Positions 18,136 to 54,040 of a stretch of DNA of 64,000 nt are shown here, in pieces. Each line of letters opens with the position of its first letter. Within the stretch, counting starts at the first letter, position 1. Made by a program: the position numbers and the translations under genes. The notes under the pieces are model-generated. The model saw only the letters and a program-made list of their open reading frames with translations, was not told the DNA's origin and made no database searches. This DNA is from a virus, in the UHGV virus genome UHGV-0382128. One strand, given 5' to 3'.

Positions 18136-21100
18136 ATGCCGAGAGAAGACGCGGCGCAGTTTAACGGTACGCTAAGCACAACGACGTACCCTAACCGATT
18201 TAACGTGGTCATTCCGCCTGAAGGACCTTTTTATCGTATCGGATTAAAACTCACAGTAGCCGACGATACCGCGCCTAACGGACGTCGTACTCTGATTGAG
18301 GGGTTGGACTACTATTTAGGCTATTACTTTAAAGAACTCGCAGAAGCTGAACAAGATCAGATTTATGGCGGGTTTATGTTGCTTACTGCAACAGAAATCG
18401 AATATGAGATTTTAGGGGTAGCACGTCAATACCGTGTACCGCAATCTGAAATCGGTAAGTTCTTAGTTCGTACTGACCTGAAAGACCCACGTAACGTGGA
18501 CTGGTCGGAGTTAATGGCGTACGCGCCGGTTATTCAACCAATCGACCCCCCTGCTAACTTAGAAGAAGCTATTCTGAGGGACGAGGTCGTTAAAGCGTTG
18601 AACGATATCCGCAAGAAAATCATTCAGCGTTCAACAGAGTTAGATGCGGCCTTCACCGAAGTCACTAACCTGATTTACGAGAACGGTAAAAAGATTTTCG
18701 ATGAAGAACTATACCAACACCACCTTAATCCTAACGCTCACCAGTATACGACCAATGACGTTGGGGCCCTTCCGGTTTTAGGACGTGCTGTTGACGCTAC
18801 AAAAGCGTTTGGGTTGACAATTGACCAACTGGCTACGCTGATGGGTTCGGCGGGCATTGAGCAATCAGACGTTGAACAGCTAATGGGTGAAGCCCTCGGT
18901 ACCGTTTACGGTCGTTGGGGCACCACGAACGGTAACGAACTAACGTTTAAAACACCGGGTGGACACATCATCAGCATCCGTGGTGATAAGTGGTTAATTA
19001 CCTCCCCGCAACCGTTAGTGATTAAAGCAGACCAAGACAACAACGAATCCGGTTTGGCGGTTGAGTTTAGTGCGGGACTGAATACGCTTTGGGTACACTC
19101 TGGGTCAGAACAGGATGTATTAGCACCGGTCTATAACTCTGTGTATCTCGTTACACCAGAAATGGTGAACATGTACCTGACGTCTGTAACGTTACTTGAA
19201 GCGAATGCCTATTTCAAACCGTCAGACACCGTAAAACCGTACGGTACAGCGAAGCAGTCTAACCCACTAACGTTGAACGCGAATATTCCCACAGCAACCG
19301 AGTCGGTTTATGGGGTGTTTTCGATTACGAATATCGCAACCTCTGTAGCGCTAGGCACTGCTATTTCCCAAAAGGCTGTGACCGAGTTAAAAAACCGGTT
19401 GGACTTGTACGTTGACGACGACTACACGGTTAACGGTAAAGGGTTTGTTAAGACAGGCGACAACATGGTGTTAACCTTAACGAAGGCCGATTTCGGTATC
19501 GATAAGATGAATAACACCGCACCCATCGCTAAACCGGTAACAAAAGCATTAGCGAACGTGCTGAAAAATAAAAGTTTGAAGGTTCACACGCACACTACCG
19601 CTGATTTGGATAATGTCCCGATTGGTAGCGCAACAGTGGACGGTATCTTACAGCTGTGGGATGCGATTGATACCACGAATGATAAAGCCGTCACATCACG
19701 CCAAGGGTGGCTGTTCGCAAAAGAGATTAAGAAGGTCTCTGATAAACTGAATACCCTCTTGCCCGCATGGACAACGGCCGGGAGCAAATATACCAACAAT
19801 TCGATATTGCCGATCTTGTCGATGGGTAATTACGAAGGTTATGGTAAAAACATGGATGCGCTCCAGATGGTTATAGGGGTACAACAAGGTAAGCTTTATG
19901 CTTTAATTAGCTCTAAATCCGCCCTTCCGGGAACTGAGGGTATTTATTACGCTGTTGCTGGGTTAAAAAACGACAAAAGTCTCGGTGAAATTTACAAAAC
20001 AACTTTCCGTTATAAGCCGAAAGGGTTAGAGACGAATTATCCGGGGGTGGAACTAAAAGAAATTACCGTTACTGGTACCGAAGCATTTATAGCGAAGGGC
20101 AGCGACGATAATTATTATTTAGTTAAACTGAACGGTTCAATGGATTACACCAAACATACCGATGTCAGGTTGGTAACTTTCTCAGAATTTGTTTCAGAAA
20201 CAACATGGGAATTTGTGCCGAATATGTTCATGGATCGTGTGGTCATAGCCGATAACGGCGTCTATGTTTTGCGTACGATGCTAATGGCCGATCTGAAAAA
20301 CAATACTCTGGTGGACTACATTAAGGATACCCCACAACCCATGTTCCGTGTTGGCTTATTGCGGCTTAATAAAACCGATCGGTTTGAACAGGTTGATTTA
20401 AGGTCTACACGAAAAATCGGTAAGTGTGCCGATTTGGTTGAACCTGGCGCGTTCGATGTAGATAATCCGAATACGAAGCGTCTTGCCTACTTCACTGCGG
20501 AAGGCAAAGCGTTGTGGACAGTGAACTTACAATTAACTAGAGGGTCGTCAAGATGGATAACGCCCGTTGTTAAGGACGGTCACTTGTTAACCGTCGGCGT
20601 GTCTGGTGTTTGTCTTGGTTTTTCTTCAACGAAAGGTACCACATTCGGGCCATGGAATGGTGCTTATCGTCTTGACCTATTAACCGGGGAGGTTGGGTTA
20701 GAGACAACTAACGTCTTCCCAATTAAAATCGATACTACAGGTTGTTACTTAAAAGACGGAACAAAAATAGAGCTGAAATGGAAATGGGCTACTCGAAGTT
20801 CTGGCTATATGGCCGACAATAGAATCTGTGTCGGTGATATGGTTTATTCTTGCTGCTGTTCGACAGAAAAACAACTTGCACCATCTCTCCATTACCAGAA
20901 ACTCCCAGAAGGAGTTAGTTATCTGGACTATGTTAAGTTGAGTGTGGGGTATGAGGGGCAATCTACGTTTGAAAATCGGATAAACCCTGTGGTGGGTTCG
21001 GTGTGGAAACCGTCTATGACCTTCCCATTGTTCTTCCCAGGAACAAACAAAGTATGGCTTAAACATCAAAAATCGGCTTATTTCATTGAAGCCGAATATG

Positions 21101-23322
21101 ATAAAAATACGACCTATGGTTATCCTGGATACGGTGGTTTTGGACCAACATCCCGCCGTGTTGAAAAAACAGCGAACGAATACGGCATATTGACAAATAT
21201 ACCGCTGGTTGTTACGCCAGAAATACCGAACGGCCTACTAGAAGGGGCTTATTTTATCGGTGCCGAAAGTAAACCGTGTACAGTTGTTTACGGTACCACT
21301 ACGGTGGGTAGTGATCGGTTGTCTATCGATGCGGCAGAATGGGCGAAGCTGACTAATATTGTTCAGTCCAGCCAGTTCTCCGGGGCATCTAACGGCAACG
21401 CCTATGAGCGGATTAGCGTAGCTAAGACCAAAAAGAACAACTACAGTTTGTCCTTTTGGGTGCTTGGTCAAACGATGTCTGGTGGTCCGCTTTGTATCGC
21501 GATAGTGAGTCTTATCTATAAAGACACTGACGGGGTAAATAAGTTTGCTTTTTACTTCTTTCAGGTAAAACCGACTATAACCAACGGGGTCATAAGGTTC
21601 GTTAGTTCGGAAGCGAGATTGATGACGTTTAGGGAAAAAGTGGCCAGTAACGCCATTAATCTCTCACCCACAGCTTTTAATGGTGAACTTAAACAACGCT
21701 CCGGTCAAGTTTTCCTTTATTCGCAAGACGGACAAAAGTTCAGATTCTCAATACATAACCTGGTTGGTGGGAATCTTGTAGGATCAGAGATTTCTTTTGC
21801 TTTTGGGATAAACTTGACTAAAAAAGGCGAATGGTTTACCGGCGAAATTCATCGGGCGTGGGGCTATACGTATACGCTGAATAATACATCTGAAGTCTAT
21901 ATACCCGATCTCTCGGGCATCGCGCTATTGACTTGTAACTCGGAAGATTTAAACGAGTTGTATCTCGGTGGCGAACAGTATAGAATCTCTGATTTGTTTA
22001 ACAAAAAATATACTGTTATCGATAAGATTATTATTGGCGGCGTACAAACACAGAGCGGTTGGAATTTCTATCTGACGGAGGAAACCGAGTTAAGTTTTGG
22101 AAATAAAAGATATACCGTTCCAAGATGGTCCGTTGATTTAAGCGATGAATTCCCGACTAATCATGCTAACCAGACGTTCTACGTTTATGCTGAAGTGGTC
22201 GGTTCTACTGCCCAATACCGCATCGGTTTAGAGCAGTTAGCTGATACCTCGTCGAGACTGTTTGTTGGGACTGTAACCACTGATTCGAACCGTATTACGG
22301 ATATCAGTATCGATAAAGTAAAACGGTTAGGTCGCGTAAAAGAGCTGGAAAATCATGCCTCGATTGTTGATCAACACGATGTGGCGCAGGCATTCGACAG
22401 GAAAACTGGCCCACTATTAACGCTGGTTAATAAACCCGTTAAAGTCGTTACAGCATCTGCGAGCAAGGGTGCTGGGTATGTCGATGGTCAGAAATGGAAT
22501 ACGTTGTCCGGGATTACAACACGTTCCAGGTTGCCGGTACAGGAAACCTATTCAGGTTATAAAAGTATCAGCAGGGTGGCGTATGAGAACTGCGCTGACC
22601 AGTTCTGGCAGAAAGCGGTTGCTGCGAACGTTGCAGCGGCTACTGCTTCTGAGAACAAACAAGCAGCAACCGCGAACATGAAGTGGTTGGGCGCGTATAC
22701 GAAACCGACTGTCGGTGCGAATGTGTGTCTGGTATTGAGTCTACGTGTTAAAGTGCCTGGTAATCCCGGCACCGCTAATCGTAAACTAAAAATCAGATTC
22801 GCGGCTCCGACAGGTATAACTGATGTTAGTTACGGGCTAAATCAGTCTGGCGGTTCGATGGCTGAACAGACAGTAACGCTAACTGCTAACAGTTATCTGG
22901 AAAAAGAACATGCCGGATTTAAGCCAGCCGAAGAAGTCCGTCTTCATGCTACGTTTTACATTCCAACAAATGAATACGATAGTTACCGTACGAAGTTCGG
23001 TGCTGTTCAGCTGATTGACGTTGAGACGAACACTGTCATTAAACAGACAGATATCGACACACCGTTTATCGTGTACACCGCCACAGAGCAAGCGGCACAA
23101 TCTGGTTTGGTCTATAAAGCGGTTAAGAGTCAGTTTCGTCAACTCCCGGCTCAACCTGTCGTCATTGTAACTGATGGACAGACAGGGACTACACCACCGG
23201 TGAAAACCGCGTATTCTGACGGCACGTTAACGGTCTATGTGGCAACCACGTACGATGCGGTTAACCCAGCACAAACTCGCGATATCGATAAACTCCAGTT
23301 CAATCTTATGTTTACATCTTAA
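18136..23322 (+). CDS. tail fibre protein (1728 aa)
   Basis: Shared N-terminal motif (PPEGPFYRIGL...GLDYYL); fibre-repeat-like segment TESVYGVFSITNIATSVALGTAISQKAV. Confidence 0.65.
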   Translation: MPREDAAQFNGTLSTTTYPNRFNVVIPPEGPFYRIGLKLTVADDTAPNGRRTLIEGLDYYLGYYFKELAEAEQDQIYGGFMLLTATEIEYEILGVARQYRVPQSEIGKFLVRTDLKDPRNVDWSELMAYAPVIQPIDPPANLEEAILRDEVVKALNDIRKKIIQRSTELDAAFTEVTNLIYENGKKIFDEELYQHHLNPNAHQYTTNDVGALPVLGRAVDATKAFGLTIDQLATLMGSAGIEQSDVEQLMGEALGTVYGRWGTTNGNELTFKTPGGHIISIRGDKWLITSPQPLVIKADQDNNESGLAVEFSAGLNTLWVHSGSEQDVLAPVYNSVYLVTPEMVNMYLTSVTLLEANAYFKPSDTVKPYGTAKQSNPLTLNANIPTATESVYGVFSITNIATSVALGTAISQKAVTELKNRLDLYVDDDYTVNGKGFVKTGDNMVLTLTKADFGIDKMNNTAPIAKPVTKALANVLKNKSLKVHTHTTADLDNVPIGSATVDGILQLWDAIDTTNDKAVTSRQGWLFAKEIKKVSDKLNTLLPAWTTAGSKYTNNSILPILSMGNYEGYGKNMDALQMVIGVQQGKLYALISSKSALPGTEGIYYAVAGLKNDKSLGEIYKTTFRYKPKGLETNYPGVELKEITVTGTEAFIAKGSDDNYYLVKLNGSMDYTKHTDVRLVTFSEFVSETTWEFVPNMFMDRVVIADNGVYVLRTMLMADLKNNTLVDYIKDTPQPMFRVGLLRLNKTDRFEQVDLRSTRKIGKCADLVEPGAFDVDNPNTKRLAYFTAEGKALWTVNLQLTRGSSRWITPVVKDGHLLTVGVSGVCLGFSSTKGTTFGPWNGAYRLDLLTGEVGLETTNVFPIKIDTTGCYLKDGTKIELKWKWATRSSGYMADNRICVGDMVYSCCCSTEKQLAPSLHYQKLPEGVSYLDYVKLSVGYEGQSTFENRINPVVGSVWKPSMTFPLFFPGTNKVWLKHQKSAYFIEAEYDKNTTYGYPGYGGFGPTSRRVEKTANEYGILTNIPLVVTPEIPNGLLEGAYFIGAESKPCTVVYGTTTVGSDRLSIDAAEWAKLTNIVQSSQFSGASNGNAYERISVAKTKKNNYSLSFWVLGQTMSGGPLCIAIVSLIYKDTDGVNKFAFYFFQVKPTITNGVIRFVSSEARLMTFREKVASNAINLSPTAFNGELKQRSGQVFLYSQDGQKFRFSIHNLVGGNLVGSEISFAFGINLTKKGEWFTGEIHRAWGYTYTLNNTSEVYIPDLSGIALLTCNSEDLNELYLGGEQYRISDLFNKKYTVIDKIIIGGVQTQSGWNFYLTEETELSFGNKRYTVPRWSVDLSDEFPTNHANQTFYVYAEVVGSTAQYRIGLEQLADTSSRLFVGTVTTDSNRITDISIDKVKRLGRVKELENHASIVDQHDVAQAFDRKTGPLLTLVNKPVKVVTASASKGAGYVDGQKWNTLSGITTRSRLPVQETYSGYKSISRVAYENCADQFWQKAVAANVAAATASENKQAATANMKWLGAYTKPTVGANVCLVLSLRVKVPGNPGTANRKLKIRFAAPTGITDVSYGLNQSGGSMAEQTVTLTANSYLEKEHAGFKPAEEVRLHATFYIPTNEYDSYRTKFGAVQLIDVETNTVIKQTDIDTPFIVYTATEQAAQSGLVYKAVKSQFRQLPAQPVVIVTDGQTGTTPPVKTAYSDGTLTVYVATTYDAVNPAQTRDIDKLQFNLMFTS

Positions 23323-26416: not shown

Positions 26417-27083
26417 ATGATAAGTCTTAAAAACATACGCGACAGATTAGTGACGGCGGAGGGATATATCACCACCGCTAATGCAAACAACTATATTGCA
26501 AACCAAGGAACGGTTTCCTCAACCAACAATCTCGCAGGATTACCTTTAAGTCATTATAATTGTAATGGCGGATGTAGTTGGTCGTGCAGCGGTAGCTGTA
26601 GTAAGGGGGCGGGGGGGGGTAAGTAAGCCCTCTAGCGGTGGTTCTACGCCAACCCCTTCAAGACCAACCTACGACAACAAAGCCGTTGTTTATGTTGAGT
26701 CTAAGCTACACGCTAAAGATACTGTTCGTATCAATTTCTCTACTGGGGCTGTCTTTATTCAATGCGTAACGTCAACCGGTAGAGAGAAACCGATAAGGGT
26801 CTTTAAATCGTTACTGTCTGGAAAGTCCTACGCCTACCCTCAAGTTGCAATGGGTAATGGTATCACTGTTAATTTTACAGACGCGGCTAGTTTTAAGATA
26901 GACTCTATCGGTAATGCATCTTCTGCTTCTATCTCATTAGAAGTATTAAGTAATTCCGGCGGAAGCATGGCGATTACGCAGCAACCGAGTAAATCAAACG
27001 GCTTTACTGCAGAATTTGAAGTTACCGGCAGGCAATGGCGTGGCGGGTTCTATACCTTGAACGTCAGATTGACCGTAAAATAA
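26417..27083 (+). CDS. Cys-rich precursor-like module 3 apparently fused to a C-terminal domain; reading frame interrupted at a G-tract (26605-26619)
   Basis: ORF 26417..26626 (leader plus short core ...HYNCNGGCSWSCSGSCSKGAGGGK*) and ORF 26565..27083 join into one frame if the G9 run is 8 or 11 long, continuing into a Pro/Ser/Thr linker (SKPSSGGSTPTPSRPT) and a domain of about 150 aa. Confidence 0.45.
26605..26619 (+). repeat. homopolymeric tract GGGGGCGGGGGGGGG inside coding sequence
   Basis: G5-C-G9 counted directly; coincides with the frame change between ORFs 26417..26626 and 26565..27083. Confidence 0.9.
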
Positions 27084-31490: not shown

Positions 31491-32021
31491 TTAAGCAGTA
31501 AAGCCGTCAAGTTCACCGTCGGTGGTGGCCAGGTCAATACGATTATCAACAACTTTCGGCGTAATTACGAAAGTTGCCATTACACCCGGTTTATAACGGA
31601 GGTTCTTTTCAGTAACGGTACACGTTACCGTACGCAGAGTGACGCTATCGTGTTCGTCTTTCTGGTCTTCGGTGGTGTACTCAACGTCACCAGGTGCGAT
31701 AGAGTCGTCAGGTTTTACTTTATTGATGTAAAACTGTAATCGGTCGCGTAGTTCGTTTTCTCCAGTCCAGAGAGCCAAATCGTCCGTTACCTCAATGCGT
31801 CCGACAACGCCAGGTTCCAGACGATCGTAATGCAGTTCGATTGCGCCTTTAAAATTTTCAGACTCTGTACGTGCGGTCATGGTAACTTTGGTATTTTTAT
31901 CGCCCTTTTCAAGAGCGACAGGTTGACCAAAAGTTACCTCTTTATCAGTGACCTGATGCGGTAGCTCTGTGTTAGCAGCATTATAAAGCGCAACTAACAT
32001 CATCTGGTTAGTAGCTGCCAT
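31491..32021 (-). CDS. small beta-rich protein, member of a 6-copy paralog family (putatively virion or fibre associated)
   Basis: Shares N-terminal pattern and C-terminal GELDGFTA with 32090..32620; weaker similarity to 35297, 35775, 46811 and 53418. Confidence 0.55.
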   Translation of the reverse strand: MAATNQMMLVALYNAANTELPHQVTDKEVTFGQPVALEKGDKNTKVTMTARTESENFKGAIELHYDRLEPGVVGRIEVTDDLALWTGENELRDRLQFYINKVKPDDSIAPGDVEYTTEDQKDEHDSVTLRTVTCTVTEKNLRYKPGVMATFVITPKVVDNRIDLATTDGELDGFTA

Positions 32022-32072
32022 TATCTTAAATCCTTAAAATGAAAGTTAAAGAAATATCGGGGGAGGTTACCA

Positions 32073-32082
32073 CCCCCCCCCC
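32073..32082 (+). repeat. C10 homopolymer (G10 on the coding minus strand), intergenic
   Basis: Counted directly; lies between the stop of 32090..32620 and the RBS of 31491..32021. Confidence 0.9.
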
Positions 32083-32089
32083 GAATCAA

Positions 32090-32620
32090 TTACTCTTTAG
32101 GCGCTGGTGCGGTGAAGCCATCCAGTTCACCTTCCAAACCGTTCAGTGCTACTTTCTCAATAGCCGGAGGAGTAACTTTATACGTTGCAACAGTACCTGG
32201 CAGGAACTTCAGGTGTCCAGCCACAACAGTTACTACGTAAATGGTTTTGCCTTCTTCTTCACGAGAAATAGTTTGCAGGTCGTTTTCACCGAATTCGTCA
32301 TCGGTGTACCCCTTCTCAACCATGGCTGCGTTAACTTTTGCCAGGATTTTCGTTGGTGAATCGAAATCGGTAGTAGGTGCAGTTACTTCAACTTCACCAA
32401 CGATGTCGCAGGAAAGACGAGTATAGTGGAATTCTTTCTCGCCTTTGAAGTTCTGGCTTTCTGCCTTGGCGGTCAGAGTAATTTTAGTGTTGCGGCCAGC
32501 TTCTCCGGTGAAGTCAGCGACAGCACTAAAGTCAACATCAGCTACGGTGAGAGCGGAGTTCAGAGAGCTGTTTTTAGTGTTAATAAGTTCGATAAGCTGC
32601 TGTTGAAAAGTTTTAGCCAT
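32090..32620 (-). CDS. small beta-rich protein, same paralog family
   Basis: 176 aa; C-terminal GELDGFTAPAPKE; pattern LIELINT...TKITLTAKAESQNFKG...HYTRL. Confidence 0.55.
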   Translation of the reverse strand: MAKTFQQQLIELINTKNSSLNSALTVADVDFSAVADFTGEAGRNTKITLTAKAESQNFKGEKEFHYTRLSCDIVGEVEVTAPTTDFDSPTKILAKVNAAMVEKGYTDDEFGENDLQTISREEEGKTIYVVTVVAGHLKFLPGTVATYKVTPPAIEKVALNGLEGELDGFTAPAPKE

Positions 32621-42391: not shown

Positions 42392-42401
42392 GGGGGGGGG
42401 G
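42392..42401 (+). repeat. G10 homopolymer (C10 on the coding minus strand), intergenic
   Basis: Counted directly; between the stop of 42416..43258 and the RBS of 41850..42365. Confidence 0.9.
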
Positions 42402-43713: not shown

Positions 43714-44561
43714 AATTGCCCTTCCTTCTTAATGTAATCTTCAACCAACTTATCAAACACGATTTTTATCTTCTCGCGTTCTTCTTCACCCAATTCACCA
43801 GAACAGGTCAGCCCATTTATCTTCCCGTACCGTAATTCCAACACATATTTCAACCGATGACGTAAGGCTTGTTCAAAATGTGTCGGGATATAGATCGGTT
43901 CGAAGTTGTGCAATAAAATAAAATCGTCTTCGGTGTGTTTAGGGGGTTCGAATTTTACTCTATCTAAGATAGTAAGCCAGCGTTGTCTGTCGACTAGCCG
44001 ATCGTCCCAATAAACAGGTTTTGTTTTAGAGGGGGTAAGTGTATTGTAGTTACTGGAATCGGAGATACGGAAATTTGCTGTGACGTAAGTCTTCGTGAGT
44101 AACGAGAGAAGACAGATCGTTCCTTCTTCAGAGTAGCTTAAACCCTCCTCGAGTACGTCTTTAGCTTTCTTGAAGTAGTCTTCAATATAGTCTTCAGCAA
44201 TTGGTTGAATCTCTACTTCTATAGCGCTAATTTGAGGTCCGTCTATCCGTAAAGGAAATTTTAGCTCAGCAATATACTGCCTATCCGATGTATAGGCGCG
44301 TGTAACAATAGGGTAAGTAACAGGCTTAGCCAAATGACGATATTCATCATCTCTAATGACTGAGTAACGTCCAAACCCACCTTTATTCGATTTTGAAAAA
44401 GCGTAAAGGTCTTTTAGATACTCTAGATACTGGCCATCTGTCATTTCATCGGTATTAAATTCACGAATATAAAGTCGTTCAACAAATCCCTTTGTTTGTT
44501 CGTAGTAATAACTGGGATCCCTATTTGCTAGAATGCGCGGGAGATAATACGGGTGTGACAT
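43710..44561 (-). CDS. hypothetical protein
   Basis: ORF 283 aa. Confidence 0.5.
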   Translation of the reverse strand: MSHPYYLPRILANRDPSYYYEQTKGFVERLYIREFNTDEMTDGQYLEYLKDLYAFSKSNKGGFGRYSVIRDDEYRHLAKPVTYPIVTRAYTSDRQYIAELKFPLRIDGPQISAIEVEIQPIAEDYIEDYFKKAKDVLEEGLSYSEEGTICLLSLLTKTYVTANFRISDSSNYNTLTPSKTKPVYWDDRLVDRQRWLTILDRVKFEPPKHTEDDFILLHNFEPIYIPTHFEQALRHRLKYVLELRYGKINGLTCSGELGEEEREKIKIVFDKLVEDYIKKEGQL

Positions 44562-44589
44562 CTAATCCTCCTTTTCGGCTATAACTAAT

Positions 44590-44636
44590 GGAGTGAACGT
44601 AAATTTCACTCTCTCTCCTAGGTAATATATATCTGA
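44590..44636 (-). promoter_or_regulatory. conserved promoter-like motif plus leader stem-loop, copy 4
   Basis: TTCTCAGATATATATTACCTAGGAGAGAGAGTGAA...; preceded by terminator hairpin 44649-44683. Confidence 0.5.
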
Positions 44637-44683
44637 GAAAAAATATAAAAACCGTAGGATGGACTTAGTCCATCCTACGGTTT
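44637..44683 (-). terminator. rho-independent terminator
   Basis: AAACCGTAGGATGGAC-TAAG-TCCATCCTACGGTTT hairpin then TTATATTTTTT on the minus strand, after the tailspike gene. Confidence 0.7.
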
Positions 44684-44686
44684 AAA

Positions 44687-46807
44687 TTAAATAACTACCC
44701 AGCTTTTACCATCGGAACCAATCTGCATTAGCGTAATACTTTCATTGGTATCAATGGGTTTGGCAAGACCTTCTGTCCCACTCTTTGGAGTGATGAGAAC
44801 GTTTGAATTTTCCGGTTTAACGGTGATCTTACCAGCCTTATTTGCCACGATCTGAATATTTCTGCCCACGCTATATTCTAGATCAGGAATAGTAAGTTGG
44901 CCGCCACGGTTGGTGGGTGGGAAATACACATAAGACGACACATCTTCCTCAGATAACACTATGCTACCAGAATCACGATTGACCGAGATCTCAAACTTAG
45001 AAATATCGATATCATAGGCAGTAACTTTCGTAATATCCGTCAGAACCAATTCGTTCAAATCGGTCTTAGCTGGACTGTTCGCCAGATCAAATGGAGTACC
45101 ATTCGTACCGTCCAGCACAGGTGTGACTGTGGTTTTATTGGCACCAGGATAAATGATTTCAAGCGTATGCCAGTTATTATCGTACGCACCAAAAGTTCCT
45201 AATTTCGCATTCTGCTTTTTATGATGCATCAGATTAAGATTCTTAGCGTCGGTCTGTAAGAAAAAAGACATTAGGTACGGGTTTGTATCAGCCACACTAG
45301 CGTCAGCAAGTGTAGTACCAGAAGGTAGGTCGGACGCGGAGATACGCCAATAAAGCCCTAAGCCGAAACGATTTTCTGCTAAATCACCTTTTAGTCTAAA
45401 AGTAACGGTCAGTCGTCCACCGTAACGTATCATGTCCGCAGCAGATGTCATTGACTTAGTTACATTCCAAGGTTTCATCGTTACAGCCTTTCTTAATTCG
45501 ACGAAATGCCCGTTTCCATCCTCAGAATCTTGCACGGTTACGTTACAATCAACGATATTGTTCCAACCCTGCCCTTTCAGGGAACCATCTCCACGACGTC
45601 CGTTATAACCCACAGACTCTACTAATGGGGTATAGCTTCTTACCACATTCATATTGTCTTTGAGCTCTTTAGTGTCGTTCTTCGTCAGGAGCATTGCACC
45701 ATTCGCTGTTCTTGATAATATCTCAGCAGCTATTCTCTCTGAGATAATACCGCGTCGTGCCCAAGAACTGAAATGGCTATTCCTTGTTTCAGACGTCCAG
45801 TTTTTATTACTACGGGTGGCAGCACCGTAGTAGGCAGCACCAGCGATATCAGGATCGTCAGTGGGATCATTAGTCGGTACACGTTGGCCATTATCGTCGT
45901 ACATGAATGGAACAAAAAAGATATTTTTTTGTTCATTGTTACGATAATTACCGTATATGGTTTCATATTGAACAGGATATTTTTCCTTCCAATAGTAGGT
46001 AGTGTCCCCGCAGATCCATGGTACTTCGGCGGTGTCGTACTCGGGCATCTGAGAGAGATGGTCAGAGAGATCAGTTCGGAAACGCTCTACCATTGCCATA
46101 AATAACGCTGGTTGTTGTGCGTAACCTACTTTAGTCAGATCATACTCCCCCTGCATCCACACTACAGCCAAGAGTTTATTTTTAGGATTAACGTCCAGAG
46201 CTTTTTTGGTCCGGCTAACTAAATCTTTATAAAGAGGTTTTTCCACCCCCCATACCGATGACGTCGCAGAGGCTCCTGTGGCTTCATCGAAGGTACCTTC
46301 TGCACCACCCGTGAAAGCAGAACCGCCGCGTGCGCAGGGTACTAGTAAGATACCAGCGTTGCTAGGAATATACGGGAGAAGACGCTTCGCGATGTGTAGA
46401 CCTTGACCCACACATCCGTATTCACCTTTGTCCAAATTGGCTTTGGGGTGCGAGAATACGGACATATCTTGCACGTCGTGCAGACAGTGATCCGCTGGAA
46501 TGACGTCGTTATACTTACAATCAGCCCCGTTAGGCGTTACCTTCGCACGGCGCGCCATCTGTTTAATTCGCGGATCGGGAGCGTCCAACGTCGCCGGTAG
46601 AGGCAACCCTTCACCATAACTCATCGCATTAGATTGCCCGGCTATAGGAATCACGAAGTAATACTCCGGCTCCGTCGTGCCCTGAAGTTTTGCAATATCA
46701 ATTTTATATTCTTTTTCTTCCTTAGAAAGAAGAACTAACGCACCTTTGAGATCGCCAGAGAAATTGTCGAGTTCATGGATACGTTTCTTTCCAATTGGCT
46801 GACTCAT
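44687..46807 (-). CDS. tailspike/fibre protein with SGNH (GDSL-type) esterase-like domain
   Basis: GQSNA motif at about residue 56; N-terminal KKRIHELDNFSGDLKGALVLLSKEEKEYK shared with the 1479-aa fibre (KKIRLHDLHPYTGDIGEGVLLFSKDEKDYK), suggesting a common attachment domain. Confidence 0.6.
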   Translation of the reverse strand: MSQPIGKKRIHELDNFSGDLKGALVLLSKEEKEYKIDIAKLQGTTEPEYYFVIPIAGQSNAMSYGEGLPLPATLDAPDPRIKQMARRAKVTPNGADCKYNDVIPADHCLHDVQDMSVFSHPKANLDKGEYGCVGQGLHIAKRLLPYIPSNAGILLVPCARGGSAFTGGAEGTFDEATGASATSSVWGVEKPLYKDLVSRTKKALDVNPKNKLLAVVWMQGEYDLTKVGYAQQPALFMAMVERFRTDLSDHLSQMPEYDTAEVPWICGDTTYYWKEKYPVQYETIYGNYRNNEQKNIFFVPFMYDDNGQRVPTNDPTDDPDIAGAAYYGAATRSNKNWTSETRNSHFSSWARRGIISERIAAEILSRTANGAMLLTKNDTKELKDNMNVVRSYTPLVESVGYNGRRGDGSLKGQGWNNIVDCNVTVQDSEDGNGHFVELRKAVTMKPWNVTKSMTSAADMIRYGGRLTVTFRLKGDLAENRFGLGLYWRISASDLPSGTTLADASVADTNPYLMSFFLQTDAKNLNLMHHKKQNAKLGTFGAYDNNWHTLEIIYPGANKTTVTPVLDGTNGTPFDLANSPAKTDLNELVLTDITKVTAYDIDISKFEISVNRDSGSIVLSEEDVSSYVYFPPTNRGGQLTIPDLEYSVGRNIQIVANKAGKITVKPENSNVLITPKSGTEGLAKPIDTNESITLMQIGSDGKSWVVI

Positions 46808-46810
46808 CTA

Positions 46811-47323
46811 CTACTCTCCAAAAGTTAAGATTTTATTGTCAAACGTCAACACGACAGAATCATCACCGATGCCACACGGTGTTTCATCTGGGCCGAAAAC
46901 CACCACGGAGAACTGTCCTTTATAAGCGATGGAATTCGGAGCGATGCTAAGCGTTACCGCGTCTTTACCTACCGTGAACGACTGGTCGGTTAAATCGTCG
47001 GTTTGTAAGTTAGCACCACAAACGGCATTGACGGATTCGATAAGATCGTGTGCATTAAACCCTTCACCTCTTACTTTTACCAGAATAGGTTGTTGGTTTA
47101 ACCACCGCTCTGCGGTTAAACGGTTGTAGTAGATTTGCAACGTTCTGTTTCCAGGACGTTTAATCTTTACAATGGCAGTGGAGTCACGATCCATTTCATC
47201 ACTGGTTTTTACGTCACTGACTTCAACCTCGTTCTCTTGCAAGTCAAGTTGGAGGTCATGGTTAACCAGTGAAATAACCATGTTAAGTGAAGTTAGTGAT
47301 AAATCTGGTGTGAATTTTTCCAC
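46811..47323 (-). CDS. small beta-rich protein, paralog family member (GTG start)
   Basis: Pattern LSLTSLNMVISLVNHD ... IYYNRL; paralog 53418..53978 sits in the equivalent position upstream of the other fibre. Confidence 0.5.
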   Translation of the reverse strand: MEKFTPDLSLTSLNMVISLVNHDLQLDLQENEVEVSDVKTSDEMDRDSTAIVKIKRPGNRTLQIYYNRLTAERWLNQQPILVKVRGEGFNAHDLIESVNAVCGANLQTDDLTDQSFTVGKDAVTLSIAPNSIAYKGQFSVVVFGPDETPCGIGDDSVVLTFDNKILTFGE

Positions 47324-47377: not shown

Positions 47378-47387
47378 CCCCCCCCCC
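47378..47387 (+). repeat. C10 homopolymer (G10 on the coding minus strand), intergenic
   Basis: Counted directly; follows a 12-bp AT-rich stem-loop (47389-47420) after the stop of 47422..47865. Confidence 0.9.
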
Positions 47388-47421: not shown

Positions 47422-47865
47422 TTAGCTAATTCTCAAATCACGCAGTGCGCCTGTCGATTTCATCACGTTTTGGAACGCGCCACTGATGTTATTAGTCCAG
47501 TAATAATGCTGTCCGTTAATAACCTGCTGATAGGCCAGCGCGCAGGTGTTACCACCTAAATTTACGGTAATGTTAGAGGCTCTGCCTCCTTGTAAGTAAA
47601 CCGCTAAAGTAGGCTTTGCGTTGGCAACTATCGTCGTTAACTGTAACTCAATACCTACTAAAGTTCCCACCCCGCAGTTACCCGCGTTTTGAATGGTTCC
47701 CTGATTTTTCTGGTTTAACGGCCAGCTTGGTCCTACCGCGCCCCATTTCTTACCTAAAGAATCGCTATATGCAGCGGTTGCAATTTTACAGCCCATAGAT
47801 CGTCCCACCATTTGACTCATCATAAAAGGTCTACCCAATCCTAATTTACTACCAGCAGCGCTCAT
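47422..47865 (-). CDS. receptor-binding-like protein, paralog of 48184..48729; true start probably upstream at 47930 but frame broken by a G10 tract
   Basis: Track ORF starts at an internal ATG; an upstream ATG (47930) with AGGAG RBS is followed by 10 G then TAA. With 8 or 11 G the frame reads MGGGVTGSWVGSSAKNETGEQW-MSAAGSKL..., matching the paralog N-terminus MGVASGWVGSSAKAVTGQEW-MSVAGNKL. Confidence 0.55.
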   Translation of the reverse strand: MSAAGSKLGLGRPFMMSQMVGRSMGCKIATAAYSDSLGKKWGAVGPSWPLNQKNQGTIQNAGNCGVGTLVGIELQLTTIVANAKPTLAVYLQGGRASNITVNLGGNTCALAYQQVINGQHYYWTNNISGAFQNVMKSTGALRDLRIS

Positions 47866-47918
47866 CCATTGTTCGCCCGTTTCGTTCTTGGCCGAAGAAC
47901 CGACCCACGAACCGGTTA

Positions 47919-47928
47919 CCCCCCCCCC
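47919..47928 (+). repeat. C10 homopolymer (G10 on the coding strand) directly after the start codon of the receptor-binding-like paralog
   Basis: Counted directly; length determines whether the N-terminal 22 codons are in frame. Confidence 0.9.
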
Positions 47929-47942
47929 ATCGCGATCTCCTG

Positions 47943-48173
47943 TTAAGATTTTCTACATGTTATTGAATCGAAAGCACCACGCCCAACCCAACGCCAATTA
48001 TAATGATGATCAGCTTTATAAAGTGTGTATCTGCCCTGCTTTTTTACGTCGAAAATATTGATCGTAGTCTCTTCATTACCCAGCTTAGCTGTGCCGTAAC
48101 ATACAGGTTCGGGTAGTTGTTGACATCCACTTACTGTAAGCAATGCGAAACCCAGTAAAACTTTTCTTAACAT
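47943..48173 (-). CDS. small lipoprotein (76 aa)
   Basis: MLRKVLLGFALLTVSGC lipobox-type signal; located between the two receptor-binding-like paralogs. Confidence 0.5.
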   Translation of the reverse strand: MLRKVLLGFALLTVSGCQQLPEPVCYGTAKLGNEETTINIFDVKKQGRYTLYKADHHYNWRWVGRGAFDSITCRKS

Positions 48174-48183
48174 CTTTCTGTCC

Positions 48184-48729
48184 TTAGACTACACTTATTG
48201 AAATTGTTGCGCCGTTCTGATTAAATAACCAGTTGGTTGCCGTCTTAGCCTCATAGCGCCGGACGCCGTTACTGTAAGAGTACGGTAGAAAAGTAATCTT
48301 CGTTCCGTTAAACGAAAGCGTAATATTCTGATTTGGTCCATTGGTTAGGGCCATGTAGATAATACCAGTATTTTGTACTTGGCTAAGATGTGTGACGCTA
48401 CAACCCAAGATCGAACCTGACACCGAACCGGCCGCATTTTGTGTTTGCACACGATTCGATACTGTAGAACCAGCACCCGTTGTTGTAGAGTTGTTCGAAT
48501 ACCCCCCATACGTATTTGTAATAGGAACCCACTGCGTGTTCGTAGCCTGCACCAAAACAACATAGGTTGATCGGCCTACAACGAGTTTAAGATCCTCTAC
48601 GCTACGCCCGACCATCTGCGACATGTTAAATGGCGTGCTCAGTTTAAGCTTATTACCTGCCACACTCATCCACTCCTGACCGGTTACTGCCTTTGCTGAG
48701 CTTCCAACCCAGCCGGATGCTACCCCCAT
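48184..48729 (-). CDS. receptor-binding-like protein (181 aa), intact paralog
   Basis: N-terminal MGVASGWVGSSAKAVTGQEWMSVAGNKLKLSTPFNMSQMVGRS conserved with 47422..47865; GGAGG RBS; immediately downstream of the 1479-aa fibre gene. Confidence 0.55.
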   Translation of the reverse strand: MGVASGWVGSSAKAVTGQEWMSVAGNKLKLSTPFNMSQMVGRSVEDLKLVVGRSTYVVLVQATNTQWVPITNTYGGYSNNSTTTGAGSTVSNRVQTQNAAGSVSGSILGCSVTHLSQVQNTGIIYMALTNGPNQNITLSFNGTKITFLPYSYSNGVRRYEAKTATNWLFNQNGATISISVV

Positions 48730-48743
48730 AAATCCTCCAAACT

Positions 48744-48771
48744 AAGATAGGGGGATTACTCCCCCTATCTT
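48744..48771 (-). promoter_or_regulatory. intercistronic stem-loop (perfect 12-bp stem) between fibre gene and downstream receptor-binding-like gene
   Basis: AAGATAGGGGGA-GTAA-TCCCCCTATCTT overlapping the fibre stop codon and just upstream of the RBS of 48184..48729. Confidence 0.45.
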
Positions 48772-51700
48772 TAATTCCCCTTGAGTTCTTTAAGCTCTCG
48801 GCGAAGAGACTTCATACCCTCTACTAACAGCGCAATAACGCCATTGTAATTTAGACGTAAACGTTTTTCGCCTGAAATGGCATCGTCGTCCTCGGACACA
48901 AGTTCAGGTAACGCTTCTAAAGCGTCCTGAGCAATTAGACCTACAGAAGTCTGCCAGCCGTCGTCAGGATGCTGAATTTCGTACAAATACCCTGTTAGTA
49001 ACTCTAACCGATCCAAAGCTTTATCCAGCTTCACCAGATTACGTTTGTTACGACGGTCAGAACGAATCTGTACGTCGTTAAACGAACCGTTACCGTTGCC
49101 AGTAACGTTATGTCCAAAGTTTACTTGACCGTTGGAATTATTAAAAGACAACGGACGTAATCCGTTCCAGGAACCCGCTGCGGCTTGTCCGGCATCGGTT
49201 ACTAAGAAATAGGTATTGGCACCATCGTTACGTAAAATAAAACCGTAGGTACCGTAAGCGATTCGAAAATCAGGGTATTTAGTGGCCAATTTACCGTTAA
49301 CGGTTAAATCGCCGCCTATAGTACCGCCCCCCGAAGGTAGTGCACCCACTTCCGCAGCAGTTGGCTTGTTTCTCGTATTGTAAGCACGACGCCAGCCTGG
49401 TGAGTATCCATCGCCGTTAAATACGTAGATAAACTCCGCATTAGTGAGTGCTCCGCCGACGCTCGTCGTTGTGGCGGTCGTTATACGGATCGTGTAGTTG
49501 TTTGTGCTGTTGCCGTTACTAATGACTTCTATAACGGCCCCAGCTAACGGAATGACACCACAACCCGTCTCGCTGTGAGGTATGGACGCACTGGCGGCAT
49601 AAGCCCACGCACAGCGAGCAACCCACGATCTTGTGGTAAATGCGCCGTTATTTTTCAATAACGTCACTAGCTGTGCTGTAGTTATTGCACCGCCATCAGC
49701 GCCAGTTTCTAACCAACCACTAGGTGATGCCGGACAACCTATTTCGGCTGGCCCTAACGATATATTTCTAGTGCCATCAAACGCAATACCATTGATGGTT
49801 CTTGCGGTTTGCAACTTTGTTGCCGTGGCTGCGTTTCCGGTGGTCGACTGATTCCCTGTTTGGTTTACTCCAGGTAAACTGATGTCTTTAGTACCATCAA
49901 AAGCCACGCCACCTATATTTCGCGCAGTCTGGAGCTTAGTCGCTGTCGCCGCATTCCCCGTAGTCGATTGGTTACCGGTTTGGTTTACGCCAGGAAGATT
50001 AACGTCTTTTGTCCCATCGAACACCACACCGCCGATCTTACGTGCGGTTTGTAACTTAGTAGCGGTCGCTGCATTACCTGTCGTATTCTGGTTGCCTTGC
50101 TGGTTAACGCCCGGTAAATTGATGTCACCTGTACCGTCAAAGCTAACGCCTCCGATCCTGCGAGCGGTTTTCAGTTTCGTCGCGGTAGCGGCGTTGCCGG
50201 TAGTATCCTGATTACCTGTGGCATTTACACCAGGAATGCTATCACGGGCAGTATAAACTTGTGCCCAATCTGACCACGGCGCATCAGCAGTATCACGTCG
50301 ACTACGAATATAAACGGGTGCGTGCGCACCGCTCGTCCCCGACCATCCGATTAACAGTTCTCCTTCGCCTAGCGCAGCAGAACCGCCCAAATGCAGTAAG
50401 TTACCATAAGCGGTTGGATAACCGTTATTGTAAACTTCGTACATCTGAATACCGGGTGTACCTTTGTTTGATCCAGTCAGTGCAGTAACACGTCCACGTC
50501 CTACCAACGTGTTGATATTGATGTCTCTAGACCCATCAAATTTCACACCGTTGATGTTTCGAGCCGTTTGTAATTTGGTTGCGGTTCCCGCGTTCCCAGA
50601 GGTGTTTTGATTACCCTGTTGGTTTACACCAGGGAGGCTAATGTCTCCGCTACCGTCGAAACTTACACCGCCGATTAAACGGGCTGTTTTCAGTTTCGTT
50701 GCCGTAGCAGCATTGCCTGTTAACTCACCTGATAACCCTTTTGCAAAGGTCTGTTTTTCTGCCCACGTATGCGCTGCATTCAATACGGGCATCTGGCGGC
50801 TAGTAATAGTACGTTTACCCTTTTCACCAGCGACGCGAACAGCAAAGAAGCGATAGTTAGCAGTAGACACTGTACCACGCCAGACCAACATACTCCGGCC
50901 AGTACCGGTGTCCTCCGACGCCCCTACAAGAATAGTGACCAAGTTACCGTCGATAACACCCCAATCCATTCCCGCAGGAATGTTTTTCATGGTATTCAAT
51001 GGTGTACTTATCATCTGGCCAGGAACGAAGTCGAAGGTTTGCCAGTCTAACGGATCGACCTTAGCAGCAACCCCACCGATCCCTAAAGTCAACGGGAGTG
51101 AATAGGATGTGAAAATTTCTCGCCATTCGCTCCAGGCGTTTCCTGTACGAATTCGTTGGAACTTGCGACCTTTCGAAGTTGCGCCTGTACCGTATGTGGT
51201 ATAATTTTGTTCAACACCTGAACCGTCTAAGCGTAAGGTAACTTCGCAAACACCTAGCAAGGTTGCGCCAGCAGAGTCTGTTAACGGACTGTCTGTAGCC
51301 TCACCGGTAACACTAAAGCGACCCGGTTTAGTTAAGTCGTTAAAGCTACCCTTATAGTAGGCACCGTCTACCTGATACCCAACCTGAATCCAATCTTCCC
51401 ACTGCGGATTAGACGAATCCCAAGTCGCAGTCAAACCACGGACATACATCGTACCACGTCGTGTGGTGTATCGTTGCAACCGTCCGTAAAGACCACCTTC
51501 CATGACTTCTAATACGCCTTGCGCATTACCGCCCTCTTCAGGATAATGTCTGTCGAACACCGCTAACGAACTGGACGAGTTACGCCAGTTACCCATGTGC
51601 TCAGCGCCGCCTAAGGAGTTCAGATCGATCGATGTAGATAACGGACGTACACCGGTAGTTACCATTCTCCACGGTGACCACGGGCCATTAGTTCCGTTCC

Positions 51701-53210
51701 ACGCACCTGACAACATACGGTTGTACACGTTACCATTACGACAGGTAAAACGTTGCGCACCGCTATAGTTACCCGCTTTATACACTTCTAGATAACCTAC
51801 CGCACCGTCTTCCGGGAAGTGTTTTGCTATTGATGCGTTTGTTGATGTCGACTTGGACCATGTTCCTGTGTAATTGGCATCTGGAGCAAATGTGTTAATA
51901 TCAGCATCTGCGGGCATTTCACCACGGAAACGCAGATAGGTATCAGGAGATAGACCAATATTGCGAGCAAAGGTTTCTTTATTGGGGATATCAGCACCGT
52001 TAGAGTTTTTCTGTAACGCAGCGTTCGCTTTATCTACAGTGGCTTTTAATCCCAAGAAATTGATGATATCCGCAGTTGTCCCTTTTGCTAACAAGGTTCT
52101 GGCGGTTTCTGTAAAGTCAGTTAACCCGACTTTATTAGTGCCAGTGAAATAAGGGAGCTTGTTTGCTGCGGTTGTGACTGCGGCAATAGCAGTAAGTAGT
52201 GGACTGATAGGTTGCTTCTGTGCAAGTTTCTCAGTAATCGTTGTTGCGAAGTTAGGGTCATTACCTAACGCCGTAGCTAATTCCGCTAAGGTATCTAACG
52301 TCTCAGGTGAAGAACCAACCAATTCCGCGATAGCAGCACGCACCCAGGCCGTTGTGGAGATGCTCGTGTCATTCGAGTCCTTTGGGGGCGTTGGTGATGT
52401 CGGGTTACCCGTAAAATTCGGCGAATGTTTATCGGCTTTTAACTGTAATTCGTCGTTCAGCTGTTTAACCGTGGACGGTGTGGCAGCCTCCGTCACGGAT
52501 TCGCTAGTCAGGGTATTGTTAAGTTTAACGATACCTTTACCGGTCGTACTAGCGTCAACTAAACCCTGTGCAGCGATTTTCTCCGCACGCAGAGCGGCTG
52601 ACTCCGAGCGTGTAGCTGCGCCTTCTGAGCTTTCTTTATCTTTCGTAACCTGCGCAGCAACCTTCTCCACCGCGCCCTTACTGGCCTCAATTGAAGCCGC
52701 AGTATTTGCGATACTGGTAGCGGTCTGTTGAACCTGTCCGGCCCGTTGCGTAACCGTTTCTGCTTTCTTAGTTACATCAGCCGCTACAGCTGTCACAGAT
52801 TGTTCGCTTGCGGCGACAGCTTGAGCCTTCTCATTTACTGATTGTGAAACAGTATCTACGGCAGTTTTTGCTGCTAAAACTTCAGCGTGTTTTTTGTTAA
52901 CCTCCGCAGTTTTAGTGGCGACGGTTCCCGCTTGCTCATTAACTGTGGAAGCTAAAGTGGTGGTCTGTTGCTTCGCTGTTTCTGCTAAATCTTTAGCTTT
53001 CGTAGCTTCTGTTGCGGACTGTTGTGATTTGGCCGCAGCCGTTTGTGCATCAGCAACCGCACTTCTGACGGTGTCAATGTCCGCAACGATCTCGCGGACG
53101 GGTAACTTATAATCTTTTTCGTCTTTCGAAAAAAGTAAAACGCCTTCACCGATATCCCCGGTGTACGGATGTAAGTCGTGTAAACGTATTTTCTTTACCG
53201 CTTTAGCCAT
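48771..53210 (-). CDS. long tail fibre protein (1479 aa) with tandem about 39-aa repeats and C-terminal intramolecular chaperone (peptidase S74-like) domain
   Basis: C-terminus SDRRNKRNLVKLDKALDRLELLTGYLYEIQHPDDGWQTSVGLIAQDALEALPELVS fits the S74 auto-cleaving chaperone signature; six repeats of GNQ.TTGNAATATKLQTAR.IGGV.FDGT.DI.LPGVNQ; fibre-repeat-like TTGKGIVKLNNTLTSESVTEAATPSTV. Confidence 0.8.
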   Translation of the reverse strand: MAKAVKKIRLHDLHPYTGDIGEGVLLFSKDEKDYKLPVREIVADIDTVRSAVADAQTAAAKSQQSATEATKAKDLAETAKQQTTTLASTVNEQAGTVATKTAEVNKKHAEVLAAKTAVDTVSQSVNEKAQAVAASEQSVTAVAADVTKKAETVTQRAGQVQQTATSIANTAASIEASKGAVEKVAAQVTKDKESSEGAATRSESAALRAEKIAAQGLVDASTTGKGIVKLNNTLTSESVTEAATPSTVKQLNDELQLKADKHSPNFTGNPTSPTPPKDSNDTSISTTAWVRAAIAELVGSSPETLDTLAELATALGNDPNFATTITEKLAQKQPISPLLTAIAAVTTAANKLPYFTGTNKVGLTDFTETARTLLAKGTTADIINFLGLKATVDKANAALQKNSNGADIPNKETFARNIGLSPDTYLRFRGEMPADADINTFAPDANYTGTWSKSTSTNASIAKHFPEDGAVGYLEVYKAGNYSGAQRFTCRNGNVYNRMLSGAWNGTNGPWSPWRMVTTGVRPLSTSIDLNSLGGAEHMGNWRNSSSSLAVFDRHYPEEGGNAQGVLEVMEGGLYGRLQRYTTRRGTMYVRGLTATWDSSNPQWEDWIQVGYQVDGAYYKGSFNDLTKPGRFSVTGEATDSPLTDSAGATLLGVCEVTLRLDGSGVEQNYTTYGTGATSKGRKFQRIRTGNAWSEWREIFTSYSLPLTLGIGGVAAKVDPLDWQTFDFVPGQMISTPLNTMKNIPAGMDWGVIDGNLVTILVGASEDTGTGRSMLVWRGTVSTANYRFFAVRVAGEKGKRTITSRQMPVLNAAHTWAEKQTFAKGLSGELTGNAATATKLKTARLIGGVSFDGSGDISLPGVNQQGNQNTSGNAGTATKLQTARNINGVKFDGSRDININTLVGRGRVTALTGSNKGTPGIQMYEVYNNGYPTAYGNLLHLGGSAALGEGELLIGWSGTSGAHAPVYIRSRRDTADAPWSDWAQVYTARDSIPGVNATGNQDTTGNAATATKLKTARRIGGVSFDGTGDINLPGVNQQGNQNTTGNAATATKLQTARKIGGVVFDGTKDVNLPGVNQTGNQSTTGNAATATKLQTARNIGGVAFDGTKDISLPGVNQTGNQSTTGNAATATKLQTARTINGIAFDGTRNISLGPAEIGCPASPSGWLETGADGGAITTAQLVTLLKNNGAFTTRSWVARCAWAYAASASIPHSETGCGVIPLAGAVIEVISNGNSTNNYTIRITTATTTSVGGALTNAEFIYVFNGDGYSPGWRRAYNTRNKPTAAEVGALPSGGGTIGGDLTVNGKLATKYPDFRIAYGTYGFILRNDGANTYFLVTDAGQAAAGSWNGLRPLSFNNSNGQVNFGHNVTGNGNGSFNDVQIRSDRRNKRNLVKLDKALDRLELLTGYLYEIQHPDDGWQTSVGLIAQDALEALPELVSEDDDAISGEKRLRLNYNGVIALLVEGMKSLRRELKELKGN
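49770..50720 (-). repeat. tandem coding repeats (about 117 nt units) inside the 1479-aa fibre gene
   Basis: Repeating nucleotide units readable on the plus strand (e.g. ...gccgtggctgcgtttccggtggtcgactgattccctgtttggtttac...) corresponding to the protein repeats; two runs separated by a non-repeat segment at about 50230-50500. Confidence 0.7.
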
Positions 53211-53417: not shown

Positions 53418-53978
53418 TCATGTAGCCGGGTTTTCTTCAGCGGAGTCTCCATCTGGAACCTCAAATGTAAGAACAGCATCGTCACCAATACAGAAGATTG
53501 CATCTTCTTCGTTTGCTAATGCCCGTTCAGTTGTATCAAATAACGTCACCATAAACGCATTCATCCACGCAGGAGAATCGTCAGCAACGTTGACAGCAAT
53601 AGGATCGTTACCTAAAGTGATATCTGAAGCACGTAAATCCTCGGGTTGTAAGTTCGTTCCGCAGAATTCATTTACAACACCTAAAATGTCGCGTACGTTG
53701 TCTTCGGTACCATCTAACGAAATCAAAATAGGTTCGGACGCTAACACTTTGTCCGCATCCAAACGGTCGTAATAAACAACTACAGAAGCACCATCAGGTT
53801 TCCTGATTTTTGTAATCTCTGTCAGTGTGTTACGACGCGAAGTGGTCGGGGATGGGTTTGCCGTAGTGTTGCTAATACGGATTTCGCTTAGAGACAACCG
53901 TGAACCGTTATCGTGGTTGATTAAAGCGACCACTAGTTCGGCTGAGGACAAACTTAAATCAGGTACGTAAGCAGTCAC
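53418..53978 (-). CDS. small beta-rich protein, paralog family member (GTG start at 53978 with GGGAGG RBS)
   Basis: MTAYVPDLSLSSAELVVALINHDNG parallels MEKFTPDLSLTSLNMVISLVNHDLQ of 46811..47323. Confidence 0.5.
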   Translation of the reverse strand: MTAYVPDLSLSSAELVVALINHDNGSRLSLSEIRISNTTANPSPTTSRRNTLTEITKIRKPDGASVVVYYDRLDADKVLASEPILISLDGTEDNVRDILGVVNEFCGTNLQPEDLRASDITLGNDPIAVNVADDSPAWMNAFMVTLFDTTERALANEEDAIFCIGDDAVLTFEVPDGDSAEENPAT

Positions 53979-53992
53979 TAAAACCTCCCAGA

Positions 53993-54040
53993 TCAAAAAA
54001 AATAAAAACACCTACCGCCCCATAGAATCGGGCGGTAGGC
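53993..54040 (-). terminator. rho-independent terminator
   Basis: CCTACCGCCC-loop-GGGCGGTAGG 10-bp stem followed by T-rich run on the minus strand. Confidence 0.65.

Follow-up and report, generated by a model that had tools for sequence, protein, structure and literature searches.

Introduction

The Cor and Llp lipoproteins of phages are already regarded as a single structural family (PMC9586334; bioRxiv 10.64898/2026.03.26.714494). In phage T5, residues Ile39-Trp46 of Llp occupy, within the FhuA-Llp complex, the site of the FhuA switch helix, and Cys11 and Cys58 form a disulphide in the crystal structure; furthermore, the Llp family includes variants directed at other TonB-dependent transporters (PMC9586334). 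For T1 Cor and T5 Llp, the benefit lies in keeping progeny from adsorbing to debris (PMC11990801). The present analysis concerns a member of this family encoded in the virus genome UHGV-0382128, from which a stretch of 64,000 nucleotides (nt), hereafter the window, was analysed as a whole. Its gene at 47943..48173 can, from its sequence, be named with confidence as phage exclusion lipoprotein Cor. The Cor/Llp family itself is already known, and what is unusual here is a Cor in a giant (jumbo) phage beside an adhesin with which it appears to have moved. By analogy with the described systems, the product is probably (about 0.7) a superinfection-exclusion lipoprotein of the Cor/Llp family that would jam the outer-membrane receptor of the adhesin encoded upstream.

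A Cor-family lipoprotein gene in the window

The gene and its signals comprise the following features.

47943..48173, minus strand: cor, 76 codons and a TAA stop (translation MLRKVLLGFALLTVSGCQQLPEPVCYGTAKLGNEETTINIFDVKKQGRYTLYKADHHYNWRWVGRGAFDSITCRKS), a prolipoprotein gene of the Cor/Llp family
48126..48173, minus strand: signal peptide, residues 1-16, ending in V-S-G before Cys17 (codon 48123-48125), from direct reading and a pattern check
47946..48125, minus strand: mature lipoprotein of 60 residues, with acylated Cys1, a predicted disulphide between Cys9 and Cys57, and the loop DHHYNWRW
48181..48185, minus strand: Shine-Dalgarno (SD)-like AAGGA, 7 nt 5' of the cor ATG, overlapping the TAA stop of the upstream gene, adhesin 1

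The window protein scored 69 bits (E=2.6e-19) over residues 6-75 with the NCBIfam equivalog NF047972, 'phage exclusion lipoprotein Cor', whose curated cut-off is 31, and it matched PHROG 1119, 'Cor superinfection exclusion protein', with E=1.3e-25. Because of these two matches, cor is judged to be a genuine gene rather than a chance open reading frame (ORF). No Pfam model matched the protein. In a tblastn search of 50,697 phage records, 106 records were found at E<=0.01, almost all of them annotated as Cor. Identity to the window protein in this search was 61% for Stx2-converting phage 86 and POCJ13, 54% for SSU5, 44% for N15, 40% for HK022 and phi80, and ~25% for T1-like phages. When 1.84 billion cluster representatives were searched exhaustively with phmmer, only 14 clusters were recovered, which indicates a small and compact family, and a word-indexed homologue search returned one near-identical protein only.

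The best-conserved positions of the family are the lipobox Cys, a second Cys ~8 residues further on and a third near the C-terminus, all three of which are present in the window protein; in both family alignments the lipobox Cys is invariant, and the latter two, Cys25 and Cys73 of the precursor, are invariant or nearly so. The most conserved motif corresponds to residues 55-62, which read DHHYNWRW in the window and GYPFNWRW in classical Cor.

The first-pass annotation had described a 76-residue lipoprotein with the lipobox VSGC, and exactly this ORF was recovered. Its N-terminus, MLRKVLLGFALLTVSG followed by Cys17, satisfies the PROSITE PS51257-type lipobox rule, with R3 and K4 as two basic residues among the first seven, an uncharged hydrophobic core and VSGC. 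The lipoprotein-signal prediction that had been proposed as a check was thus carried out in the form of this PS51257-type pattern, which the window Cor and 11 further family members all passed. The residue at position +2 after the lipobox Cys is Gln, not Asp. In enterobacteria, lipoproteins without Asp at +2 follow Lol-dependent transport to the outer membrane, and Lol-dependent sorting to that membrane would therefore be expected of the window Cor.

Predicted fold and relation to T5 Llp

An AlphaFold2 model computed from the family alignment reached a mean predicted local distance difference test (pLDDT) score of 84, and ~95 over residues 21-70, and consists of a small beta-barrel; the fold shown by this model is Llp-like. 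In a MAFFT alignment, T5 Llp aligned with the Cor family over its full length and was 22% identical to the window protein. Each of the three Llp Cys is conserved, at mature positions 1/11/58 in T5 Llp and 1/9/57 in the window protein. In this alignment, DHHYNWRW (residues 55-62) falls on Llp Ile39-Trp46, the segment that occupies the switch-helix site in FhuA.

As Cor and Llp are treated in the literature as one structural family, the window protein is a true homologue of T5 Llp and not merely a positional analogue. The earlier suggestion of a positional analogue of Llp was accordingly right about the relationship, which is borne out by NF047972, PHROG 1119 and the conserved Cys, and too cautious about its nature, since homology replaces mere analogy.

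A jumbo-phage genome as carrier

The genome carrying cor is a ~225-kb jumbo phage similar to SPN3US and Asesino. With proteins of two 240-kb jumbo myoviruses, Asesino of Erwinia and SPN3US of Salmonella, the 1728-residue ORF at 18136..23322 shares 40-43% identity. The nearest relative at the DNA level, at ~81% identity, is a 222,441-bp circular 'plasmid' of Enterobacter ludwigii (NZ_CP134650.1). This record is annotated as a plasmid with nearly all genes hypothetical, and it looks like a jumbo-phage genome carried by, or co-assembled with, its host. In addition, a metagenome scaffold of 225,387 bp is ~98% identical to the window and has the same order of fibre, adhesin, cor and adhesin; in this second strain cor is kept with one amino-acid change.

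Among the phage records listed, no Cor-bearing phage larger than 103 kb was present, and scans of metagenomes and genomes for further jumbo-phage cor genes returned only loci resembling Stx phages and, in Kluyvera, SSU5. A separate match was seen in the contig JAGXLH010000043.1 of a Thermoplasmatota metagenome-assembled genome (L095 3501-3629), where a 52-residue stretch is 48% identical to Cor; the probable explanation is either mis-binning of a fragment from an enterobacterial phage or chance similarity.

Linkage with a gp38-type adhesin

Around cor, the following genes lie in the same orientation.

48771..53210, minus strand: long tail fibre of 1479 residues with a C-terminal Peptidase_S74 chaperone, at the head of the operon (Pfam Phage_fiber_2, Gp34_trimer and Peptidase_S74)
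48184..48729, minus strand: adhesin 1, gp38-type, 181 residues (Pfam Gp38_N, E=2.4e-20; PHROG 1121 'tail fiber adhesin', E=6.9e-53)
47422..47930, minus strand: adhesin 2, gp38-type (of the p09EL50/P13374 type), out of frame after the ATG here

The gaps between fibre, adhesin 1, cor and adhesin 2 measure 41, 10 and 12 nt, a spacing that suggests a single operon of four genes. The location of cor between two receptor-binding-like paralogues, as reported by the first-pass annotation, is supported by matches of both flanks to PHROG 1121, with the proviso that the downstream one, as it stands in this sequence, is not an intact gene. Its ORF at 47422..47865 matched PHROG 1121 with E=2.7e-31 and Gp38_N positions 21-40 with E=7.7e-6.

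Adhesin 1 is 69% identical to gp22 of Stx2 phage 86 and 51% identical to SSU5_022, and both homologues stand near a cor gene: the order is fibre, 181-residue adhesin and cor in phage 86, and fibre, adhesin, two small ORFs and cor in SSU5. Related loci were searched for with a 5-sequence Cor alignment, and the 80 Cor loci of the IMG/VR set were divided by Cor identity into those at >=54% and those at <=47%. An adhesin of the adhesin-1 type was found upstream in every one of the 11 loci of the former group with sufficient upstream sequence, whereas a Gp38_N adhesin lay within 4 kb in none of the 68 loci of the latter. Four further loci of the subclade, from metagenomes and Kluyvera genomes, likewise carry the adhesin-1 type upstream. 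The adhesin-2 type occurs in p09EL50 and in Stx phage P13374 with no adjoining cor. Among the relatives of adhesin 1, wide sharing is confined to Gp38_N, the first ~45-50 residues.

Comparison with the E. ludwigii relative indicates how the pair was acquired. In that genome the fibre is followed by a classical glycine-rich (GRM-type) gp38 of 261 residues and then by a gene of the adhesin-2 type, with no cor. DNA similarity to the window ends at the fibre stop codon and restarts in the segment of adhesin 2 that encodes Gp38_N; there, positions 47773-47907 share 92% identity with the relative, against ~80% in the flanks. Because similarity stops at the fibre end and resumes within Gp38_N of adhesin 2, the comparison identifies adhesin 1 plus cor as a ~870-bp cassette (47908-48775 versus L002 7352-8222) that took the place of a different adhesin. 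Recombination probably used the fibre end and the conserved N-terminal part of the adhesins.

Proposed function and alternative explanations

In the proposed mechanism, the mature lipoprotein would sit in the inner leaflet of the outer membrane, with its disulphide-stapled 60-residue beta-domain turned toward the periplasm. Judged by analogy from the solved FhuA-Llp complex and from Cor genetics, it would bind the periplasmic face, barrel and plug, of an outer-membrane receptor and lock it, and the surface loops would then no longer accept the phage adhesin. The most likely target is the receptor recognised by adhesin 1, which is encoded immediately upstream and always co-inherited with this Cor subclade. 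That receptor would most probably be a TonB-dependent transporter, for which FhuA, the sole proven Cor/Llp target, serves as precedent only. A lytic jumbo phage could benefit in that infected cells would not be superinfected and progeny would not be lost on receptor-bearing debris. Since cor, lodged tightly within the fibre operon, lacks its own sigma-70-like promoter, we infer that late expression and a role in protecting the progeny fit better than early exclusion.

Several observations weigh against the jamming of the adhesin 1 receptor. A Foldseek search of the window Cor against the PDB returned nothing significant, and in a comparison of the sequence profile with PDB sequences Llp was the best match at a marginal E=0.098, mainly through the signal peptide. 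Cor lies inside an apparent late structural operon, and its expression may be too late for classical early exclusion. Among the phages matched by the full-length or C-terminal domain of adhesin 1, none had an assigned receptor; the literature searches returned nothing on the adhesin-1 type. SSU5 reportedly needs the lipopolysaccharide core, and the linked adhesin may thus not bind a protein receptor. Moreover, the linkage of adhesin and cor could stem from a shared mobile cassette instead of a functional pairing.

The same evidence bears on the competing explanations. Cor might be a cross-exclusion moron that blocks FhuA, not the receptor of its own phage, and guards the cell against T1-, T5- and phi80-like competitors, its position beside the adhesin being accidental. 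Every experimentally studied Cor in the literature excludes FhuA-dependent phages, the NWRW half of the conserved loop is kept in the window Cor, the Cor of HK022 is annotated as a moron, and a relative was deposited as a circular 'plasmid' of 222 kb, a hint of a carrier state that would favour such a gene. An accidental position, however, leaves the strict linkage unexplained: the subclade co-occurs perfectly with one adhesin type, down to ~50% identity, whether the backbone is that of a podovirus, a siphovirus or a jumbo myovirus, and it does not occur beside other adhesin types. The first half of the predicted receptor-contact loop is also DHHY instead of the classical GYPF, and cross-exclusion, though plausible, is considered unlikely. 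A more specific extension of the jamming mechanism, offered tentatively and with low confidence, is that the subclade of the window, Stx2-86 and SSU5 types is specific for a non-FhuA receptor bound by the 181-residue adhesin. Adhesin and blocker would form a mobile host-range cassette, moved among podoviruses, siphovirus phage-plasmids and a virulent jumbo myovirus, while a second adhesin, outside the blocker's cover, would have its expression switched by hypermutation of the poly-G run at its start, a combination that would amount to bet-hedging in host range.

Acquisition in a single recombination would also be compatible with a cor gene that arrived as a passenger of adhesin 1, without a role or useful expression in this phage. 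The ~47908-48775 cassette does replace the 261-residue gp38, its borders fall in conserved Gp38_N-coding sequence and at the fibre 3' end, and the closest relative lacks cor. Yet no family-invariant residue is missing from the intact ORF, which has a good SD and is tightly packed, and the ~98% identical strain differs in Cor by a single amino acid, all of which makes a mere passenger very improbable. An assignment to another class of phage lipoprotein, either an o-spanin (Rz1-like) or a fibre-assembly factor, would draw on the fact that small outer-membrane lipoproteins of phage genomes are often spanins. It can scarcely be sustained against the strong and specific homology to Cor and the fold matching Llp: no i-spanin gene encloses or adjoins cor, the family searches gave no match to spanins, holins or endolysins, the neighbours are fibre, adhesin and DUF7941 virion protein genes, and the model shows the mature domain as a folded beta-barrel in place of a proline-rich coil. 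On the grounds of homology and genomic setting, neither a spanin nor an assembly factor nor a chance ORF was accepted as an explanation.

Neighbouring genes and homopolymer tracts

Additional elements of the region are listed below.

48749..48765, minus strand: G+C hairpin GGGGGAGTAATCCCCCT between the fibre stop and the adhesin 1 start
47919..47928, minus strand: G10 homopolymer beginning with the G of the adhesin 2 ATG, giving the product MGGG-stop
26611-26619, 32073-32082, 42392-42401, 47378-47387 and 47919-47928: G/C homopolymers, three intergenic and two at ORF 5' ends

A scan for sigma-70 promoters found no sigma-70-like sequence upstream of cor on the coding strand. This negative result says little, as the lineage, we assume, probably uses its own RNA polymerases. 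Similar short G5/C5 hairpins were observed 5' of gp38-type adhesin genes in p09EL50 (L003 ~5170-5195) and in the E. ludwigii relative (L002 ~7395-7415), and the element, present in three unrelated backbones, may serve the adhesin cassette as a conserved signal for attenuation or processing.

The true start of adhesin 2 is the ATG at 47930-47928, preceded by the SD AGGAG (47941-47937) with a 6-nt spacer. The reading frame requires a G run of 5, 8 or 11, and both the window (10) and the near-identical scaffold (9; L004 6246-6254) are out of frame. Among homologous starts, p09EL50 has 5 G (ATGGGGGTA), and the E. ludwigii relative has no run (ATGGCTGTA, the other form of the homologue). Five G/C runs of 9-10 nt occur in the 64 kb (44% GC), against ~0.03 expected, two of them 52-55 nt upstream of paralogous genes for DUF7941-type virion proteins. 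All three runs that could be compared with the related scaffold differ by 1 nt, and the 81%-identical relative has no such runs. After one of these runs the scaffold has a gap, and the adhesin 2 tract is the exact end point of a Logan contig. The tract could reflect either phase variation or a homopolymer miscall.

The 1479-residue fibre shares 77% identity with its counterpart in the E. ludwigii relative. Between 49600 and 50900 (minus strand) it contains tandem copies of a ~35-40-residue repeat (…GNQxTTGNAATATKLQTAR.IGGV.FDGT.D…), recognised by blastn self-similarity and translation. Further along, at 43806-46893, lies a 706-residue protein with a sialate-O-acetylesterase (SASA) domain and DUF6645; this segment, which also includes part of a 283-residue ORF, is absent from the E. 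ludwigii relative. The first ~45 residues of the SASA protein resemble the N-terminus of the 1479-residue fibre (KKxRxHxL...SKxEKxYK), and it is probably a second, enzymatic receptor-binding protein that uses the attachment site of the fibre. In addition, at least four paralogous genes for DUF7941 / PHROG 1037-2935 'virion structural protein' products of ~170-197 residues surround the fibre region (31491-32620, 46811-47323 and 53418-54011).

Significance

Identification of this gene removes a 'hypothetical lipoprotein' label from a jumbo-phage genome and extends receptor jamming of the Cor/Llp type, as proposed above, to an SPN3US/Asesino-like jumbo phage. It also reveals a Cor subclade whose travelling partner is a gp38-type fibre-tip adhesin and not a siphovirus central fibre. 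If the pairing of adhesin and cor is functional, the receptor could be found through what Cor silences. Such a pairing would also be relevant to phage therapy, as Cor-bearing cells and debris would be refractory to every phage that uses the same receptor.

Comparison with known Cor and Llp systems

Direct sequence similarity between the window Cor and T5 Llp (PDB 8A60 with FhuA; 7QJF) is marginal, and the two genes differ in arrangement. T5 llp has its own promoter and is divergent from the pb5 gene, whereas the window cor is co-oriented inside the fibre-adhesin operon. The partner receptor-binding protein differs as well, being a pb5-type central-fibre protein for Llp and a gp38-type fibre-tip adhesin for the window Cor.

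The Cor proteins of phi80, N15, HK022, mEp167 and T1 belong to the same family (NF047972, PHROG 1119), at 25-44% identity to the window protein, with which they share the lipobox, the Cys pair, the NWRW motif and a location near a host-specificity gene. In these phages, however, cor follows a central fibre of the lambda-J type with no Gp38_N adhesin within 4 kb, and their Cor, with the loop GYPF, inactivates FhuA, whereas the window loop is DHHY.

The closest relatives, annotated as Cor, are those of Stx2 phage 86, Shigella phage POCJ13 and the Salmonella phage-plasmid SSU5, which agree with the window Cor in size, lipobox and Cys pattern. The Stx2-86 and SSU5 loci also have in common with the window the order of fibre, 181-residue Gp38_N adhesin and cor. 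Differences lie in detail and in the carrier: SSU5 has two extra ORFs between adhesin and cor, the window has a second adhesin gene directly 3' of cor, and the Stx2-86-type and SSU5 carriers are temperate 60-kb podoviruses and a 103-kb siphovirus phage-plasmid, respectively, in contrast to the ~225-kb jumbo myovirus described here. A cor gene beside host-recognition genes is common to Stx2-86, SSU5, HK022 and the window, where it lies 10 nt after adhesin 1 and 12 nt before adhesin 2.
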